In this document: piece after piece, positions 1 through 7,066 of the stretch | How positions within the stretch are numbered: the stretch's first letter is position 1 | How the letters are laid out: every line of letters starts with the position of its first letter | Source of the DNA: a virus | Taxonomy: Duplodnaviria; Heunggongvirae; Uroviricota; Caudoviricetes | DNA: 7,066 nucleotides | Direction: 5' to 3' (one strand) | Virus record (IMG/VR): IMGVR_UViG_2531839098_000010 | Made by a program: the position numbers and the translations under genes | The notes under the pieces: generated by a model | Told to the model about the DNA's origin: nothing | Seen by the model: the letters and a program-made list of their open reading frames with translations, nothing else | Database searches by the model: none

Positions 1-62
1 GTCATCCTGTTTACCTCTTTCTCAGGGAGTTTAGTCTCCAGGATTCCCGGGGCGGTTCAGCT
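1..62. repeat. Left copy of a perfect 62-bp inverted repeat; its partner is at 7005-7066
   Basis: Reverse complement of 1-62 is identical to 7005-7066. Identity ends at position 63 (g) versus 7004 (g), which are not complementary. The repeat lies inside the open frame that continues into tfa. Confidence 0.9.
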
Positions 63-588
63 GGCCGGAACTAATGAATTTATTGGTGAAGGTGACGCAT
101 ACATTCCGCCTCATACAGGTCTGCCAGCAAACAGTACCGATATTGCACCGCCAGATATTCCGGCTGGCTTCGTGGCTGTTTTCAACAGTAATGAGGCATC
201 GTGGCATCTCGTTGAAGATCATCGGGGTAAAACGGTTTATGACGTGGCTTCCGGCGACGCGTTATTTATTTCTGAACTCGGTCCGTTACCGGAAAATGTT
301 ACCTGGTTGTCGCCGGATGGAGAGTGTCAGAAGTGGAACGGCACATCCTGGGCGAAAGATGCAGAAGCAGAAAAACTGTTTCGGGTACGGGAGGCAGAAG
401 AAACAAAAAACAGCCTGATGCAGGTAGCCAGTGAGCATATTGCGCCACTTCAGGATGCCGTAGATTTGGATATTGCGACGGAGGAAGAGGCATCGTTACT
501 GGCTGCATGGAAGACATATCGGGTATTGTTGAATCGTGTTGATACAACAGTAGCAGCGGATGTTGAGTGGCCAGTCGCCCCACAATAA
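1..588 (+). CDS. tfa: Tail fibre assembly protein, lambda Tfa type; 5' end lies outside the window
   Basis: Frame 1 is open from base 1 to TAA at 586-588. Residues from [31 protein letters not shown] to the C-terminal [15 protein letters not shown]...EWP motif closely resemble lambda Tfa as I recall it. There is no in-frame start before the conserved region (first ATG at 172 would cut it), so the start must be upstream of the window. Confidence 0.85.
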
Positions 589-594
589 AAAGAA

Positions 595-624
595 AAAGCC
601 ATCGACAGAAATATCGATGGCTTT
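595..624. terminator. Bidirectional intrinsic terminator between convergent tfa and acetyltransferase genes
   Basis: Stem 595-605 (aaagccatcga) pairs with 614-624 (tcgatggcttt) around an 8-nt loop. On the minus strand it is followed by a T-rich tract (tttttcttttta). It sits 6 nt after the tfa stop and 7 nt after the acetyltransferase stop. Confidence 0.6.
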
Positions 625-631
625 ATGTACT

Positions 632-1204
632 CTATTTATACAATACAACACCACTCTTTTTAGTTATATATGTGCAGTTTGATGGTATATCTTTATTTAT
701 AAAAGACATTGCACCTATTTTTACATTATCCCCAATTTTACGTGATAATCCAATGATGCAACAATTAGCTCCGATATCAACGTTACTACCAATTTTTACT
801 CTTGAACTAGGCATATCACCATCTATCTGTCCAATGGTAGTATTCTGTCGTAATACCAGATTTTCACCCGCATCAACAGCAAAATGAACAACAATTCCAG
901 CATGATGGGGAATTGTCAACCCTTTTCCAATATTTGCGCCCAATCCTATTTCACAACCAAACTTGTTAATTATTTTACTGTTTAACTTTTTGGCTGCTTT
1001 CTTATGTAATTTATTACCATTAATATACATTTCGTTAGCCAACCGCCACCAGAAAAGGAAATTCCGGTTACGCTGCTTTTTCTCTCTTAAAAGCCTCCAG
1101 ATATCCATACGTTTCCGCCGAATTACTTCATGTTTCCAGAAGTTTTTTAAATTAGTAGAGTTTCCAAATAAAACAAAGTGAATTGCCATTAAGTAAGATA
1201 GCAC
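632..1204 (-). CDS. Hexapeptide-repeat acetyltransferase, WcaB / serine O-acetyltransferase (CysE) family; AT-rich cargo gene
   Basis: The track ORF is 632..1237. The probable start is GTG at 1204-1202, preceded by an AAGGAG ribosome-binding site 6 nt upstream. The C-terminal half has tandem hexapeptide motifs (GCEIGLGANIGKGLTIPHHAGIVVH..., IGSNVDIGANCCIIG, IGDNVKIGAMSFI) typical of left-handed beta-helix acyltransferases. GC content by eye is about one third, against mid-50s in the flanking tail genes. Confidence 0.75.
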   Translation of the reverse strand: MLSYLMAIHFVLFGNSTNLKNFWKHEVIRRKRMDIWRLLREKKQRNRNFLFWWRLANEMYINGNKLHKKAAKKLNSKIINKFGCEIGLGANIGKGLTIPHHAGIVVHFAVDAGENLVLRQNTTIGQIDGDMPSSRVKIGSNVDIGANCCIIGLSRKIGDNVKIGAMSFINKDIPSNCTYITKKSGVVLYK

Positions 1205-1255
1205 GATAATCTCCTTAATTATTATTTCAGACCACACATGTTATAAGGTTAAGAG

Positions 1256-1284
1256 ATTATAAAATCCTGTTATTTGTTATTCAA
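1256..1284 (-). promoter_or_regulatory. Putative sigma70 promoter for the acetyltransferase gene
   Basis: Minus strand reads TTGAAT (-35, 1284-1279), a 17-nt spacer, then TATAAT (-10, 1261-1256). This lies about 50 nt upstream of the GTG start, with an A/T-rich tract upstream of the -35. Confidence 0.5.
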
Positions 1285-1317
1285 AAACAATTTTCTGAGA
1301 AGGACATACAACAGCAA

Positions 1318-1350
1318 GTCGCCAGTCACCTTCATCAGGAAATTGGCGAC
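1318..1350 (-). terminator. Possible weak terminator hairpin after tail gene U
   Basis: GTCGCCA (1318-1324) pairs with TGGCGAC (1344-1350), a 7-bp GC-rich stem with a large loop, about 10 nt after the U stop. The following minus-strand tract is only moderately U-rich. Confidence 0.3.
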
Positions 1351-1360
1351 ATACGTTAAA

Positions 1361-1855
1361 TCAGAGCAGCCCCTTAACTGAGCTGGCCGCGCTATTAAGG
1401 GATGATGTCACCTTATCTTTGAAGCCGGACAGCATATCGCTGAACGATGAGGATTGCAGGCGCTCCCGCAAATCCTCATCACAGCGTTCAAGAGTCAGTG
1501 AAAATTCTATCTTTTTCGCCTTACCGTAGCGATCAAACTCGGAGCGGGTCGTATTCGTTCCGGTCAGGACATACATGCCGTAAATCTGCCCGACGCCATC
1601 AATCAAAGGCCAAGGACGTCCTGTATATGCCTGCGTGGTCAACAACGACAGCGACACTTCGCCACCAGTAATCTCAGGATAAAGAACACCAGAAAGAACG
1701 ATGCGATCATCACCTGCACCGATATACTGCCAGCTTGCTGAACGGTTAACGCGTTCATTTTTCACATGTCGCCAGCTTTTGTTTTGCTGTAACTGCTGAT
1801 GCGGCAACGTGCGCAGCTCAAAAACAAACATGCCGTAGATCATCATCATGGCCAT
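1361..1855 (-). CDS. U: Phage tail protein U (P2 gpU family)
   Basis: The 164-aa ORF directly follows the tape-measure stop. Its N-terminal MAMMMIYGMFVFELRT...SWRH and EITGG motifs are as I recall for P2 gpU-like proteins. A GGAG ribosome-binding site overlaps the T stop, so the true start is probably ATG at 1849 rather than 1855. Confidence 0.85.
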   Translation of the reverse strand: MAMMMIYGMFVFELRTLPHQQLQQNKSWRHVKNERVNRSASWQYIGAGDDRIVLSGVLYPEITGGEVSLSLLTTQAYTGRPWPLIDGVGQIYGMYVLTGTNTTRSEFDRYGKAKKIEFSLTLERCDEDLRERLQSSSFSDMLSGFKDKVTSSLNSAASSVKGLL

Positions 1856-1861
1856 GACTCC

Positions 1862-2698
1862 TCAATCTTTATCGTAAAAACTGCCACGCCTGGCACGGGC
1901 GCGCCGTTCCATTTCTGCCCTGACCATTTCGCCGACCAGTTTCGCCAGTTCGCGGGGATTCTGCGTAACAACGTTATGCAGATGAACATGAATTTCACCG
2001 CCAAATCCGGAGGCAACAGGCTCCCGGTTACGGGAAGTTGCAGGAACTGATGCCACTGGCGATCGTATGGCCTCCACCACCGGGCGGGAGCTGGCCGCAA
2101 CAACAGGGACCAGCGCCGGAGGCAGCGGAGCCGGGACCACGGGTGTGATATTAATTGCGGGGGCAGGCTTACTGACCTGCGCAATCTTCCGCTCCTGCCA
2201 CTCCCCACGAACAGCAAGTGCGCGGGGCAGGTTCTTAAAGACAATATCGCCGGGGCCAATGCGTTTTTTTGTCTCATCAACCAGCTTACCTGTGTTATCA
2301 GCAATTTTGCTGAGTCTGCGTAGCGTGCCGGTATTGCTGTCTGTGAGAGGTTTGTTGTCTTTGGGTTTATCATCTCCGGTGCCATTGCTATTTCCCGCAG
2401 ACTTCGGCGGATTGATTTTCGCAATGTCTCCCTGAAACAGAGCAACCTTGTCCTGAAGAATGGCCGCACGTTGTGCGTCTTCGATTTTCTTGCGCGCCCT
2501 TTCCGCTTCATCCGGAAGCACACCGAGTTTTTCAAGTATCCACGCCAGCGTATCCAGCAACATTTTTGCAGGCGTCAGAACAAGCTGTAACGCACCACCA
2601 AGAACGTTACCGAATACCTCGCCAGCACTGGTACATTTATCCAGCGTTTCCTTGCTGGACTCCATCGGTGACAGCAGCGATTTAAACCAGTTAAACAC
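1862..2698 (-). CDS. T: Tail tape-measure protein T, C-terminal portion, in a frame shifted by one relative to the N-terminal portion
   Basis: The 278-aa frame is contiguous in sense with the upstream tape-measure frame. It has tape-measure-like low-complexity and Pro/Ala-rich composition and ends immediately before U. It has an in-frame stop just upstream (2723-2725), so it cannot start independently except at a GTG. Confidence 0.75.
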   Translation of the reverse strand: MFNWFKSLLSPMESSKETLDKCTSAGEVFGNVLGGALQLVLTPAKMLLDTLAWILEKLGVLPDEAERARKKIEDAQRAAILQDKVALFQGDIAKINPPKSAGNSNGTGDDKPKDNKPLTDSNTGTLRRLSKIADNTGKLVDETKKRIGPGDIVFKNLPRALAVRGEWQERKIAQVSKPAPAINITPVVPAPLPPALVPVVAASSRPVVEAIRSPVASVPATSRNREPVASGFGGEIHVHLHNVVTQNPRELAKLVGEMVRAEMERRARARRGSFYDKD

Positions 2699-4701
2699 CT
2701 GGCTGAACCGCTTCCGATTACGTCAAAAACAGGGCCAAACCGTTCAAAGGTGTCGCGCAACGGGGTCAGCCTTTCCATAATCCCGCTGAACACCCCGGCA
2801 AAGAAAGCCCTGATAGGATCCCAGTATTTCCAGATAAGAACGGCAGCTCCGGCAAGCGCAGCCACGATAAGACCAACCGGACTGAACAACGCCCCGATAA
2901 CGCCTCCCAGTAAAGAAACGGAACCCGTCACCATTCCCCATAGCGCAGGTAACACCCTGACGACATTCATTGACCGGGTAAGAATGTCAAAACCAAGACG
3001 CAGGGTGGCCAGCTTCCCGTAAAGCACCCCAATAACCAGCGACAACGAGCCAATCGTTGCAGTCATTGCCAGCAACGCACCGCCTGCTATCAGTAGCTGG
3101 CGCGTCAGTACCGGATGGGCCTGCGCCAGCGAGGTGATTTTTTCAAGCACCCGCGTGAGCCACTGCGTGACAGAACGCAGCGGACCGTCAACCAGATCAC
3201 TGATGCGAATACGAAGACCTTCCCATGCGCTGTCGAGATTTTTCAGGTCCCCATCAAGATTATCAGCCATTACTTTTGCGACGCGATCGGCCTCTCCCCT
3301 TGCCCCCTGCAATTCTCTGGTCAGTTTTTGCAGCTCTCCTGAACCAGCCGCCGCAACAAGCGTCTGCAAACCAACGAACGCCTCTTCTCCGGCGATGTCC
3401 TTGAAGAAGGAGACCTGGTCCACCTGTCCGTATTTTTGTGTCGCCTTATAGAGATCAAGCAGCACATCCTCCATCGGGCGCATTTTGCCTCTGGCGTCAG
3501 CAACTGACACCCCCAGCTCTTTCAGTGCATCAGCCGCAGCTTTTGGCGGTGATGCAAGGCGGGACAGACTTGCGCGCATGGCCGTGCCAGCATCGCTTCC
3601 GCGAAGACCATTATTGGCAAGCATCCCGGCCATGGCCGCCGCTTCTTCAAGACTGATACCAAGTTTTGCGGCAACCGGACCGGTATACTTCATGGTTTCG
3701 CCCAGCGCGCGTAAATCAGTATTGGTCCGGGTAAATGCTGCTGTCAGCGTATCGCCCACCCGGTCCATTTGATCGGCTGTCAGGTTGAACTGTGTGAGGA
3801 TATTGGAGCCTATATCAGCCGTCTCGCCGAGTTCGACGCCACCTGCCAGCGCCATATTAAGAACACCGGGCAATGCGGCCTGAATGGCCTGCGGAGTAAA
3901 ACCAGCCATTGCCAGAAAGCTCTGCCCACTGGCGGCATCACTCGCAGTAAACTGTGTTTCAGCAAGTTTTAACGCCTGCTCACGCAGCGCCTTAAACTGC
4001 GGGCTGTTTTTGTCGATTCGCGTCAGTGCCTGAACGCGGGACATCTCTTTGCCGAACCCGATCGCAGGCTGCAAAAAACGCCCGGCAGCATAGCCGCCCG
4101 CCGCTGCCGCACCAATTGCCAGCGCACCACCTGTTTTCAGTTTTCCCGCGGTTTCCTGCGCGTGCGAATACCGCTCACGCGCCTGCGTTACACGCGCAAG
4201 CGCCTGCCGTTCGCGTTCAAGCTGGTTGTTGTATTGTTCGGTGCGTCTGATGGCCTGCTGAATGGTGTTATCGCTGCCTGTCAGGGAAATGCCGTGGCGT
4301 TTCAGCTCTCCGCCAAGTTCCCTCATTTTCTGAATTTCCCGTGTGCGCGATTCATTCAGGCGTTCAAGCCGGGTGCTTAACTGCTGCATCAGCTTTTGTT
4401 GTTTTTCGCTGAGCACTGTACCCGTGCGTTGTAACTGATTAAGGGCGTTAAGCTGGCGTCGTGCTTTCACGATGCCAGCATCCGCTTTACTGACAGCGTC
4501 GCGGGCGCGCTCAAATGATCGCGCCTGACGCTCGAGATTTTTGATCGCCCCCTGCGTTCGCTGGATGGAGTCACCAAACTGCCCCATCAGGCGGCGTGCG
4601 TTTTCGGCAGGTCGGGTCAGCCTGTCAACGGCGCTGAAAGCGACCCGGATATCAAGAGTCTTCATTGTCTGCATTCCCGCTGCGAAGTGCCGCCCGCTCA
4701 C
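2575..4701 (-). CDS. T: Tail tape-measure protein T, N-terminal portion; the last ~44 codons before the stop at 2575 are out of frame
   Basis: Long ORF between E' and U with coiled-coil-like, Ala/Leu/Arg/Gln-rich sequence followed by hydrophobic segments. The track start at 4701 is GTG; a more likely start is ATG at 4674 or 4665, overlapping the end of E'. Sequence after ...FDVIGSG (about 2707) looks like out-of-frame read-through (Cys/Arg/Trp-rich). Confidence 0.85.
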   Translation of the reverse strand: MSGRHFAAGMQTMKTLDIRVAFSAVDRLTRPAENARRLMGQFGDSIQRTQGAIKNLERQARSFERARDAVSKADAGIVKARRQLNALNQLQRTGTVLSEKQQKLMQQLSTRLERLNESRTREIQKMRELGGELKRHGISLTGSDNTIQQAIRRTEQYNNQLERERQALARVTQARERYSHAQETAGKLKTGGALAIGAAAAGGYAAGRFLQPAIGFGKEMSRVQALTRIDKNSPQFKALREQALKLAETQFTASDAASGQSFLAMAGFTPQAIQAALPGVLNMALAGGVELGETADIGSNILTQFNLTADQMDRVGDTLTAAFTRTNTDLRALGETMKYTGPVAAKLGISLEEAAAMAGMLANNGLRGSDAGTAMRASLSRLASPPKAAADALKELGVSVADARGKMRPMEDVLLDLYKATQKYGQVDQVSFFKDIAGEEAFVGLQTLVAAAGSGELQKLTRELQGARGEADRVAKVMADNLDGDLKNLDSAWEGLRIRISDLVDGPLRSVTQWLTRVLEKITSLAQAHPVLTRQLLIAGGALLAMTATIGSLSLVIGVLYGKLATLRLGFDILTRSMNVVRVLPALWGMVTGSVSLLGGVIGALFSPVGLIVAALAGAAVLIWKYWDPIRAFFAGVFSGIMERLTPLRDTFERFGPVFDVIGSGSARCLTGLNRCCHRWSPARKRWINVPVLARYSVTFLVVRYSLF

Positions 4702-5181
4702 GCCAGCTAACCACTTCGCCGGGCGTCATCATGAAGATTTCGGCGGGCGACCAGTTAAAAATAACGGCAATATCTGCCACAAAGTCTTCTATGTGCTCAA
4801 AGCACACAACCGTGATCAGGCTTCCGTCGCCTGTTCGTTCTTCCCGCCAGAGTCCGCACCGCTCAAAAAATTTACGGCAACCACACATAACTGAATAAAG
4901 TCACGGGATGCCATTTTTTTGATCGTCACTTCATCCAGTCGCGGTGATGTCACGCGTGACAGCAGCGTAAACATGGATTCCGCTTTCAGATTCAGCACAT
5001 CAGACAGCGACAAATCTCGCAGAGATCCAGCCTGCTCAATAGCCCCGGTGATCTCCACATACGTGATTTTTTCGCCGCCTCGCTCAATTGGTTGGGTAAG
5101 TTTTACACCACGCTCACTGGTTTCTTTCACAGTGTCAGTAACTACCGTGTTTTCGGTATCGATGTTTTTCGTCTCTTTCAT
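4652..5181 (-). CDS. E+E': E+E' fusion chaperone produced by programmed -1 translational frameshift
   Basis: A -1 frame opens exactly at the slippery site (FFERCGLWREER...NADNEDS) and ends at TGA 4654-4652, overlapping the start of T. This is the arrangement described for the P2 tail operon. Confidence 0.7.
4816..5181 (-). CDS. E: Tail assembly chaperone E (P2 gpE family)
   Basis: The 121-aa ORF sits between the tube gene and tape measure, with an AAGGAG-like ribosome-binding site 7 nt upstream of ATG 5181. It contains the slippery heptamer near its 3' end. The position and frameshift architecture match the P2 E/E' and lambda G/GT pattern. Confidence 0.8.
   Translation of the reverse strand: MKETKNIDTENTVVTDTVKETSERGVKLTQPIERGGEKITYVEITGAIEQAGSLRDLSLSDVLNLKAESMFTLLSRVTSPRLDEVTIKKMASRDFIQLCVVAVNFLSGADSGGKNEQATEA
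4864..4870 (-). other. Slippery heptamer T TTT TTG for the E to E' -1 frameshift
   Basis: Minus strand reads aaT TTT TTG with codons aat|ttt|ttg in the E frame, the X XXY YYZ pattern. The -1 frame from ttt ttt gag is open for a further ~70 codons. Confidence 0.7.
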
Positions 5182-5203
5182 CAGGAAACTCCTTTCAGTC
5201 AGA

Positions 5204-5222
5204 GGCGACGCACTGCGCCGCC
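5204..5222 (-). other. GC-rich RNA hairpin in the FII-E intergenic region
   Basis: In the minus-strand transcript, GGCGGCGC pairs with GCGUCGCC (8 bp including one G-U pair) around a 3-nt loop. There is no U-tract after it, so it is not a canonical terminator. Confidence 0.35.
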
Positions 5223-5235
5223 TGCATATTACTTA

Positions 5236-5748
5236 TCAGCCAAGCCCAAGCGCGGAACGGATGCGATCGGGCACAATGTCCTTGCCGTCCTTCCGGTAAA
5301 TGAAGTTCAGCAGGTCAATCTCCCACAACGGGCGATCGTTAACACTCAGCTTGTAGTAGGTGTTTTTAATGGCGTAAGTGTGTGATGTGGCTTCTCCCTG
5401 TTTGGCTTCCCCCATATCAATTTCCGTCACACGTCCGCGCATTTCGACTTCATACAGGTCGCTTTCATCATCGGTGTAGTATTCCCCCGCAAAACGCAGT
5501 AGCGTGCCGTCAATCGTGCCGCCATACTTCAGGAACAGCTCACGAACTGCGCCCCCCATGACAAAGCTCGCATCAAGCGCGGAGTCGTCCAGGCCGAGGT
5601 CAATACTTACCGCACCCATCATGCCACCACCCCGGTAGCTGTCGGTTTTGCGCGTCAGTTTAGGCAGGGTGACGGACGTCACCTTACCCACTTCGTTTTC
5701 ACCATCCACAAACAGCGTAAAAAAGCGAAGATGTTTTGGTACAGCCAT
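5236..5748 (-). CDS. FII: Tail tube protein FII (P2 gpFII family)
   Basis: The 170-aa ORF has motifs SVTLPKLTRK, YRGGGM, DLGLDD and EMRGR as I recall for P2 FII-like tube proteins. Its ATG overlaps the FI stop by 1 nt (TGATG), with a GGGAGGTG ribosome-binding site upstream. Confidence 0.9.
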   Translation of the reverse strand: MAVPKHLRFFTLFVDGENEVGKVTSVTLPKLTRKTDSYRGGGMMGAVSIDLGLDDSALDASFVMGGAVRELFLKYGGTIDGTLLRFAGEYYTDDESDLYEVEMRGRVTEIDMGEAKQGEATSHTYAIKNTYYKLSVNDRPLWEIDLLNFIYRKDGKDIVPDRIRSALGLG

Positions 5749-6932
5749 CAGGCACCTCCCAGCACCGCAAATGCGGGACCAAAGAATTCATCAGTAAACG
5801 ACTGGTAAAGCTCCATGTCTTCCAGCGGAGGAACGGGCGTATATTTGTAGCGAATACGCACACGCCCCTGACGTAAATTCGTGGTGCTGTTATCCTCGAT
5901 GTCATACCAGCACTCCGCGCCAATCAGTTTCCCGGCAGTAACCAGTGAATCCAGTTTTGCCCTGATGGCACTGATAACATCCTTCACGTTCGCAGGTGTC
6001 AGTGGACTGTCGATGGTTTCAAACTGCGCTTCCGCAATTGAATCAGCCAGCACCTGTGCGGTTCGGGTATACACCTCAAAGATGTAGGCGTTCGTTTCCG
6101 GTGTGCGGTTGCCCCAGAAGCGGAACCCGTTGCGACGAATAATGGTCGTGATTTCTTTGTTGTTGAGGCTGTTGGCATCACTGTCTTCGGCCTGCAACGA
6201 CCAGAACACATGCCTCGACATCCCAAGCACATTTTTAACCGGAACGTTGGACAGCGATTTGTGCCAGCCCTGCTCATGGTCAATGTACGCACGAAGGCCG
6301 CACGCATAAGCAGGCGCGGGGAACGTTTCGTTTTTGCCACTTTTCAGGTTGTAGGCGATGAAGTCAGGCCATAAGAGCATCACCTCACGTTCGTTGAATT
6401 TCTGGCGGTAGGTAATCGCCTCAGCCATCGTGTTACAACCATGACATGTGGCATACACAAACGCGCGCAGTTTACCCGCAATCACGCACAGGGATTTTGT
6501 TACCGCCTCCGTGTCCAGCTCCGGCGCGGCCAGAATACGCGGACGGTATCCGATGCTTTCATCCTGCTCTGCAACAAGCAGCGCATACATCCCCGTATAG
6601 CTGCCGTCAGATTCAGAACCACCGATAACCAGTTGATCCTGCGTCTTACCGCCTTCTTCTTTGTGTTCAGCCACGCGAACGACGATCACTTTTGTGCTCA
6701 CCTGGTCTGCGATAGCCTTAAGCGCACGATAAAGCGTCCCCGTAGTCCCGCATTTTCCCAGCACGTCATTGACGCGGGTCAGCAGTGTGGGCTTGTTCAG
6801 CGGGAACAGCTCCGCGTCCGCATCATCTGCCGTTGCCACGATACCGATAACACTGGAATCAACATCATTAATCGCTGTTACCAGGTCGGTACTTTCCGTA
6901 ACACGGGCACCATGAAAACGAGTTTCACTCAT
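5748..6932 (-). CDS. FI: Contractile tail sheath protein FI (P2 gpFI family)
   Basis: The 394-aa ORF has motifs FPLNKP, KLRAF, WPDF, EQGWHKSLSNV, RRNGFRFWGNRT, YTRTAQV and YTPVPPLE characteristic of P2-type sheath proteins. Gene order FI-FII-E-T-U matches P2. Confidence 0.9.
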   Translation of the reverse strand: MSETRFHGARVTESTDLVTAINDVDSSVIGIVATADDADAELFPLNKPTLLTRVNDVLGKCGTTGTLYRALKAIADQVSTKVIVVRVAEHKEEGGKTQDQLVIGGSESDGSYTGMYALLVAEQDESIGYRPRILAAPELDTEAVTKSLCVIAGKLRAFVYATCHGCNTMAEAITYRQKFNEREVMLLWPDFIAYNLKSGKNETFPAPAYACGLRAYIDHEQGWHKSLSNVPVKNVLGMSRHVFWSLQAEDSDANSLNNKEITTIIRRNGFRFWGNRTPETNAYIFEVYTRTAQVLADSIAEAQFETIDSPLTPANVKDVISAIRAKLDSLVTAGKLIGAECWYDIEDNSTTNLRQGRVRIRYKYTPVPPLEDMELYQSFTDEFFGPAFAVLGGA

Positions 6933-6994
6933 AGCTTCAGCCCCTTGTATCCGTTAAATGATTCGGCAACAATCATCACCCACCACGCGCGTAA

Positions 6995-7066
6995 TCACCG
7001 TAAGAGCTGAACCGCCCCGGGAATCCTGGAGACTAAACTCCCTGAGAAAGAGGTAAACAGGATGAC
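6995..7066 (-). other. 3' end of a minus-strand reading frame entering from outside the window; ends three codons after the right inverted repeat
   Basis: On the minus strand the inverted repeat encodes the same peptide as at the left end (...[20 protein letters not shown]), but here it continues LLR and stops at TGA 6997-6995, 62 nt upstream of the FI start. It is either the C-terminus of an upstream gene or a truncated copy of the tfa 5' end. Confidence 0.35.
7005..7066. repeat. Right copy of the perfect 62-bp inverted repeat
   Basis: Exact reverse complement of 1-62. Confidence 0.9.

Follow-up and report, generated by a model that had tools for sequence, protein, structure and literature searches.

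Gene T, which encodes the tape-measure protein of a P2-like tail operon, has very probably been inactivated by a small inherited mutation in the decaying Sp13 prophage of Escherichia coli O157:H7, in a case of ordinary prophage decay. The window, that is, the whole stretch of 7066 nucleotides analysed here, appears to be the surviving tail-gene segment of this defective P2-like element, which we take to be the one called CP-933T in strain EDL933. The frameshift in T is already known from RefSeq/PGAP annotation and fits the published description of Sp13. The altered site is shared by a large set of complete E. coli genomes, its ancestral state is preserved in an orthologous prophage at the same chromosomal position, and the reading frame that remains is truncated.

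The reading frame of gene T is broken at a single site

The genes on the minus strand of the window follow the order sheath, tube, E, E', T, U (Table 1); in this contractile-tail operon, T comes directly after E/E' and precedes U. The assignment of T as the tape-measure gene of a P2-like tail module, made in the first-pass annotation from the letters of the sequence, is borne out by two profiles with scores above the curated cutoffs: the intact orthologue reaches 289.9 bits against TIGR01760 (tape_meas_TP901; cutoff 28.8) and 191.9 bits against PF10145 (PhageMin_Tail; cutoff 33.2), and the N-terminal product encoded in the window still reaches 186.3 bits against the latter. NCBIfam searches with the gpE-like and gpU-like proteins yielded no match, and the identities of these two proteins rest on deposited annotations and synteny.

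Table 1. Features of the window and their coordinates
Feature	Position	Strand	Details
IS629/IS1203 copy end	1..62	-	In place of ~16.4 kb of prophage with the head, lysis, baseplate and tail-fibre genes, as well as ~47 nt at the start of the tail-fibre-assembly gene
gpU-like tail protein gene, intact	1361..1849	-	Downstream of T; annotation and synteny
Tape-measure gene T, now a pseudogene	1862..4665	-	2804 nt, compared with 2808 nt (935 aa) in intact orthologues; PGAP 'frameshifted'; PF10145, TIGR01760
C-terminal T remnant, untranslated	1862..2707	-	Ancestral residues 655-935 (281 aa), in the -1 frame relative to the start
Out-of-frame tail of the T product	2575..2706	-	43 codons (SARCLTGLNRCCHRWSPARKRWINVPVLARYSVTFLVVRYSLF) and stop 2577-2575, ending the 696-aa product
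Frame-breaking lesion	2707..2708	-	Coding strand GGGATC -> GGTTC (GA>T, net -1); plus strand TC -> A; BLAST against 493/89 and phage alignments agree
In-frame 3-bp deletion	3962..3963	-	CTT GGC TCT GAA -> CTT GCT GAA; Gly235-Ser236 -> Ala; inside the PhageMin_Tail domain
E' extension	4652..4870	-	Slippery T TTT TTG at 4870-4864; -1 frame open to stop 4652-4654; overlaps the T start
gpE-like tail assembly chaperone gene, intact	4816..5181	-	121 aa; 'tail protein', same protein accession as 493/89
Major tail tube gene (FII-like), intact	5236..5748	-	ORF list and deposited annotation
Tail sheath gene (FI-like), intact	5748..6932	-	One nonsynonymous SNP relative to 493/89, hence a different protein accession
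Second IS629-type copy end	6997..7066	+	Inverted relative to the first copy and 96% identical to it; in place of ~5.1 kb with D, the IS30 remnant, the YecA-family gene, ogr and hok

The annotated start of T is ATG 4665, which gives a protein of 935 aa in intact relatives, but the window contains no single continuous full-length T frame, the frame being switched at 2707/2708. Direct inspection of the minus strand around 2724..2696 (...GAC GTA ATC GGA AGC GGT TCA GCC AGG TGT...) confirmed that the switch falls between the codons for Gly (2709-2707) and Phe (TTC, 2707-2705), exactly where it was first noticed, and retranslation reproduced the peptides originally read on both sides of the joint. 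The upstream frame runs through ...FGPVFDVIGSG into SARCLTGLNRCCH... and, after 43 aberrant codons, ends at stop 2577-2575, whereas the downstream frame reads (F)SQVFNWFKSLLSPMES..., also written RNRKRFSQVFNWFKSLLSPMES..., and is open until stop 1864-1862, its nearest upstream stop (2725-2723) lying six codons ahead of the joint. Two long minus-strand ORFs in different frames, 4701..2575 (708 codons) and 2698..1862 (278 codons), overlap at the joint. Because both together align full length, end to end, to single 935-aa homologues, a chance pattern is excluded.

The product of the start frame is a 696-aa protein composed of 653 native and 43 out-of-frame residues; it retains the PF10145/TIGR01760 core (residues ~190-537) and lacks the C-terminal 281 residues. 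The length of the tape measure sets the length of the tail, and its C-terminal end sits at, and is needed at, the baseplate end; the truncated product should therefore not support normal tail assembly, and tape-measure function is presumably lost.

Ancestral state of the site and distribution of the altered allele

The sorbitol-fermenting O157 strain 493/89 carries an orthologous prophage at the same chromosomal site, in which T is an intact 2808-nt ORF encoding 935 aa. Positions 57-6996 of the window match this prophage with 99.885% identity over 6944 nt, the differences amounting to four SNPs and two indels. The likeness extends to the prophage of strain LSU61 (the same integration site and 99.9% identity over the same interval), and the U, E, E' and tube proteins of these elements share their accessions with those of the window. 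Unlike the window, however, both 493/89 and LSU61 have an intact T, with GGGATC at the joint and GGC TCT at residues 235-236. Within T, the window departs from 493/89 only at 2707/2708, where BLAST places a mismatch at 2707 and an absent base before 2708, and by the 3-bp deletion at 3963. The lesion is thus a 1-bp deletion plus an adjacent substitution (ancestral GGG ATC to GG(T) TC) rather than a pure single-base deletion. When one G is inserted, a 934-aa T frame is restored, and I655F and the replacement of GS by A at residues 235-236 are then the sole differences from the protein of 493/89.

More distant relatives agree on the position of the loss. The tail operons of phages 500465-2 (Gemsvirus) and P88 (Xuanwuvirus), both members of the Peduoviridae, are 94-97% identical to the window over 1355-6996: 500465-2 is 97% and P88 94% identical at the DNA level across U-T-E-tube-sheath, with the same gene order and a T of 935 aa. 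The two genomes belong to functional phages and encode T in a single frame, against which the window is short of 1 + 3 bases, and alignment to these intact P2-like tape-measure genes, the check proposed in the first-pass annotation, places a net loss of one base exactly at the joint. Accordingly, the early description of the shift as equivalent to a 1-bp deletion holds as a net change of -1 relative to 500465-2, P88 and 493/89, with the refinement that a substitution accompanies it. The remark that the site is not at a homopolymer stands only in part: the event was GA>T, and the ancestral site abuts a G3 run as well as a GATC, the latter being destroyed by the change. The anticipated length of the intact protein, about 935 aa, is that of the orthologues in 500465-2, P88, 493/89 and LSU61; of the proposed extent of the intact frame, from about 4674 to 1862, the length was sound but the start was not, since the annotated ATG is at 4665 and the repaired window gene encodes 934 aa.

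Exact matches to a 61-nt probe centred on the joint came from 264 complete E. coli genomes, such as those of EDL933, TW14359, FRIK944, 180-PT54, DEC4E and ATCC 43888 as well as isolates from the UK (bovine isolates among them), the US, Argentina, Japan and Australasia, so that the allele is fixed and is reproduced across independent genomes of the lineage. A further 26 genomes carry one base more than the window at the probe site. The matches fall into these two classes, 264 with at least 99% identity and 26 in the 95-99% band, and among the matches listed the identity is always either 100% or 96.8%. The lower band agrees in number and in listed accessions with the 26 genomes that contain the exact intact 62-mer, among them the O157 strains 493/89, LSU61, PV15-279 and F3113; with SNPs, the intact 62-mer is present in ~1,200 genomes of other serotypes. 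Neither of the conceivable intermediate alleles, GGGTTC or GGATC, was found in the 61-mer search, within the 28-nt word limit of megablast.

The tail operon is a prophage remnant with deletions on both sides

Several E. coli O157:H7 chromosomes match the window with 100% identity over its entire length. The copy in strain 9234 is found inside a prophage adjoining the leuZ-cysT-glyW tRNA cluster, in which a tyrosine integrase, regulators, a replication endonuclease and ParM are followed by an IS629/IS1203 copy and then by the window genes; the annotation of this strain adds to the latter a truncated tail-fibre-assembly gene and a serine O-acetyltransferase gene, and assigns the second IS copy to the IS3 family. 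The element appears to be Sp13 itself: it is a P2-like prophage beside leuZ that comprises an integrase, a replication endonuclease, ParM, IS629 copies and what is left of the tail operon. EDL933 and TW14359 share the exact frameshift allele, and for strain Sakai the comparison was made through the published description. Sakai has a single P2-like prophage, Sp13, which is devoid of most morphogenetic genes and whose minor-tail function was scored as 'D, defective' (Asadulghani et al., 2009; PMC2669165). Nearly all of the O157 strains examined by long-read sequencing are reported to carry SP13, which is tightly clustered among them (PMC5359411). Literature searches on Sp13 together with IS629 yielded passing mentions only.

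Apart from the frameshift, the same element has suffered two IS629-flanked deletions of ~16.4 kb and ~5.1 kb (Table 1). The native ogr is gone, and of the native sequence that preceded the sheath gene only 64 nt are left. Even with T repaired, this prophage would presumably be unable to build a tail. Because so much of the element is gone beside the IS629 copies, the consequence of losing T is moot for it, and the initial suggestion that a truncated tape measure probably renders the tail module defective is right about the defect but not about its main cause, which is the larger IS629-associated loss of the baseplate and tail-fibre genes, D and ogr.

Related O157 strains show how differently the same prophage has fared. 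The prophage of 493/89 is near-complete: its portal, terminase, capsid, lysis, baseplate, tail-fibre, ogr and hok genes remain, the sole interruption being that of D by IS30. In LSU61, which likewise retains head, lysis, baseplate, tail-fibre, ogr and hok genes, T is intact and part of D has been lost. In PV15-279 and F3113, an IS629-associated deletion has taken the 5' end of T along with the E, tube and sheath genes, and the T of F3113 contains an internal stop as well. Strains of the TW14359 type have the T frameshift and still keep a 5' fragment of D and the IS30 remnant, whereas in the type represented by the window and strain 9234 the right-end deletion is slightly larger and both are missing. 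Since TW14359 has the frameshift yet retains the D fragment and the IS30 remnant, the frameshift is older than that last deletion.

Alternative explanations of the frame break

A frame broken by a single base invites the suspicion of a sequencing or assembly error, in which case the true genome would have one extra base and an intact T. Indels of this size are a common type of error and the ancestral site includes a short run of G, but the lesion combines a deletion with an adjacent substitution and is no simple homopolymer miscount, and PGAP reports the same T gene as 'phage tail tape measure protein, frameshifted' in the separate assemblies of strains 9234 and TW14359. Above all, the identical 61-nt allele recurs in 264 complete genomes, which were sequenced independently by many laboratories and on many platforms; an error, the option initially left open, is thereby excluded, and we consider the chance of it negligible. 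Just as improbable is the reading that a programmed -1 slip at 2707, or some other form of recoding, joins the two frames into a full-length tape measure. A programmed -1 frameshift is indeed a feature of P2-like tail operons, although in E/E', ~2.1 kb upstream of the joint, and the window retains the P2-type slippery sequence T TTT TTG at 4870-4864 in E together with an open -1 frame directly upstream of T (PGAP names 4652-4807 'GpE family phage tail protein'); judged by this motif, the genuine programmed frameshift of the operon is the one in E. By contrast, inspection of the T joint (AGC GGT TCA GCC) revealed neither an X XXY YYZ slippery heptamer nor a known +1 motif, the local sequence being C GGT TCA. 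The 103 nt of RNA from the joint downstream fold slightly better than shuffled sequences (minimum free energy -34.4 kcal/mol, z = -1.75), but 8 of the 200 shuffles are equally stable, the first stem begins at the site itself with no spacer, and the same downstream sequence is found in the in-frame alleles. Furthermore, unlike the conserved E/E' event, the two-frame arrangement of T is limited to one clonal lineage: 500465-2, P88, LSU61 and 493/89, the last a 99.9%-identical orthologue, all encode T in one frame. The early judgement that a programmed event is unlikely, for want of a slippery heptamer, is upheld by both the sequence of the joint and the in-frame relatives.

Somewhat less remote, but still very improbable, is that the break created a split or neofunctionalised gene, with either the 696-aa N-terminal fragment or a separately initiated C-terminal fragment (GTG 2698, 278 codons) kept for a benefit to the host, for example, interference with the tail assembly of incoming P2-like phages. 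In line with such a role, the allele and its intact sheath, tube, E and U neighbours are conserved in 264 genomes, Sp13 genes, especially those of the early regions, are transcriptionally induced by mitomycin C, and an ogr homologue is present on Sp2 (PMC2669165). The clone, however, shares a very recent common ancestor, differing from 493/89 by 4 SNPs in 6.9 kb, and this accounts for the conservation; sister lineages destroy T by other means, which speaks against its being kept by selection; the native ogr and nearly all of the sequence upstream of the sheath gene have been deleted; and the C-terminal ORF has no match to a Pfam family. A more specific version, to which we give a still slimmer chance, would have the 696-aa fragment and the intact sheath, tube, E/E' and U proteins expressed upon Sp13 induction, perhaps through the Sp2 Ogr homologue acting in trans, and serving as a dominant-negative decoy that poisons the tail assembly of superinfecting or co-resident P2-like phages. 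If so, the frameshift allele would persist in O157:H7 because it is maintained, and not simply because it has yet to be lost.

Inheritance of the lesion and its significance

Ordinary decay of the prophage is very probably the explanation, and no observation spoke against it. In this scenario, one small mutation on the coding strand, GGGATC to GGTTC, would have inactivated T; ribosomes starting at ATG 4665 would translate 653 native codons and 43 junk codons before reaching the stop, leaving the 281 C-terminal residues unmade. The mutation would have arisen in an ancestor of typical O157:H7 after the lineages of 493/89 and LSU61 had split off, the branching order of the O157 sublineages being taken here as background, and the allele would have been passed on vertically ever since. 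The frameshift would then represent one step of a continuing decay, alongside the IS629-associated loss of most of the morphogenesis genes.

Beyond bookkeeping, the result is of little importance: it confirms a true, lineage-defining pseudogenising mutation and fixes the exact ancestral sequence. The combination of GGTTC versus GGGATC at 2705-2709 with the 3-bp deletion at 3963 is a possible small phylogenetic marker, which would separate typical O157:H7 from the lineages of 493/89, LSU61 and PV15-279/F3113. More generally, the locus illustrates clearly how one prophage has decayed along different paths in sister lineages.

Lesions and parallel inactivation of the tape-measure gene

The tape-measure gene T of the defective prophage Sp13 carries two lesions in the window, namely the frameshift and, within the PhageMin_Tail domain, an in-frame 3-bp deletion. 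The mutation at the joint, where the reading frame breaks, abolished a GATC (Dam) site and, combining a deletion with an adjacent substitution, looks like one complex event. Among Escherichia coli genomes, one of the 290 matches to the joint probe, a 61-nt sequence centred on the frame break, falls in a plasmid-labelled record. Because all 26 records with the intact allele are chromosome-sized, this match must carry the frameshift allele, and the record probably represents a mislabelled or misassembled replicon.

T has also been inactivated in the atypical O157:H7 strains PV15-279 and F3113. In their copies of the same prophage (loci L006 and L007, respectively; 8548-9761 in both), E, the tube and sheath genes and the 5' portion of T have been lost beside a distinct IS629 insertion. 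Both strains retain the ancestral sequence at the frameshift site, and the T remnant of F3113 additionally contains an internal stop. Inactivation of T in these two strains is independent of, and parallel to, the frameshift in the window.

Features of the tail-gene segment (window positions unless stated otherwise)
Feature	Position	Strand	Remark
Two inverted IS629/IS1203-type copies	1-62 and 6997-7066; 13750-15062 and 22005-23317 in L003 (matching O157:H7 chromosomal prophage locus)		
Tail-fibre-assembly gene	43-588	+	5' end cut by IS629 junction
Serine O-acetyltransferase (LbetaH-domain) cargo gene	632-1204	-	Between tail-fibre-assembly gene and gpU-like gene U
Frame-breaking change in T	2705-2709	-	Ancestral GGGATCAG to GGTTCAG
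In-frame 3-bp deletion in T	3962-3963	-	Gly235-Ser236 to Ala, versus O157 strain 493/89 and phages 500465-2 and P88
E' extension, -1 frame	4652-4870	-	From slippery site to E' stop
Slippery T TTT TTG	4864-4870	-	Canonical P2-type -1 programmed frameshift site, inside gpE-like chaperone gene

Organization of the tail segment

Immediately upstream of T, the -1 frame entered at the slippery site is open for 72 codons, up to the stop of E', which overlaps the start of T; in the PGAP annotation, E' is not fused to E but forms a CDS of its own, 51 aa long (4652-4807). The entire 6.9-kb tail segment is flanked by the two IS copies, which are 95.7% identical to each other and are each bordered by a multi-kb deletion relative to 493/89. 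This layout resembles a composite transposon; we found no evidence for mobility of the bracketed segment. At the left IS629 junction, ~47 nt are missing from the 5' end of the tail-fibre-assembly gene (window position 57 corresponds to 17378 of L004, the 493/89 prophage locus, where the gene starts at 17331), and PGAP still predicts a full CDS by placing the start inside the IS end. The neighbouring serine O-acetyltransferase gene, which also adjoins tail-fibre-assembly genes in the unrelated phages JL22 and vB_EcoM-Ro157c2YLVW, occupies the position held in P88 and 500465-2 by an invertible fibre segment and a DNA invertase.

In P2, the sheath, tube, E, T, U, D, ogr, baseplate and fibre genes all lie on one strand, whereas in P88, 500465-2 and Sp13 the sheath-tube-E-T-U block (window 1355-6996) is opposite in strand to D, ogr and the baseplate and fibre genes. 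Given its conservation across this group, the opposite-strand block is a feature of the lineage and not a rearrangement of the window.
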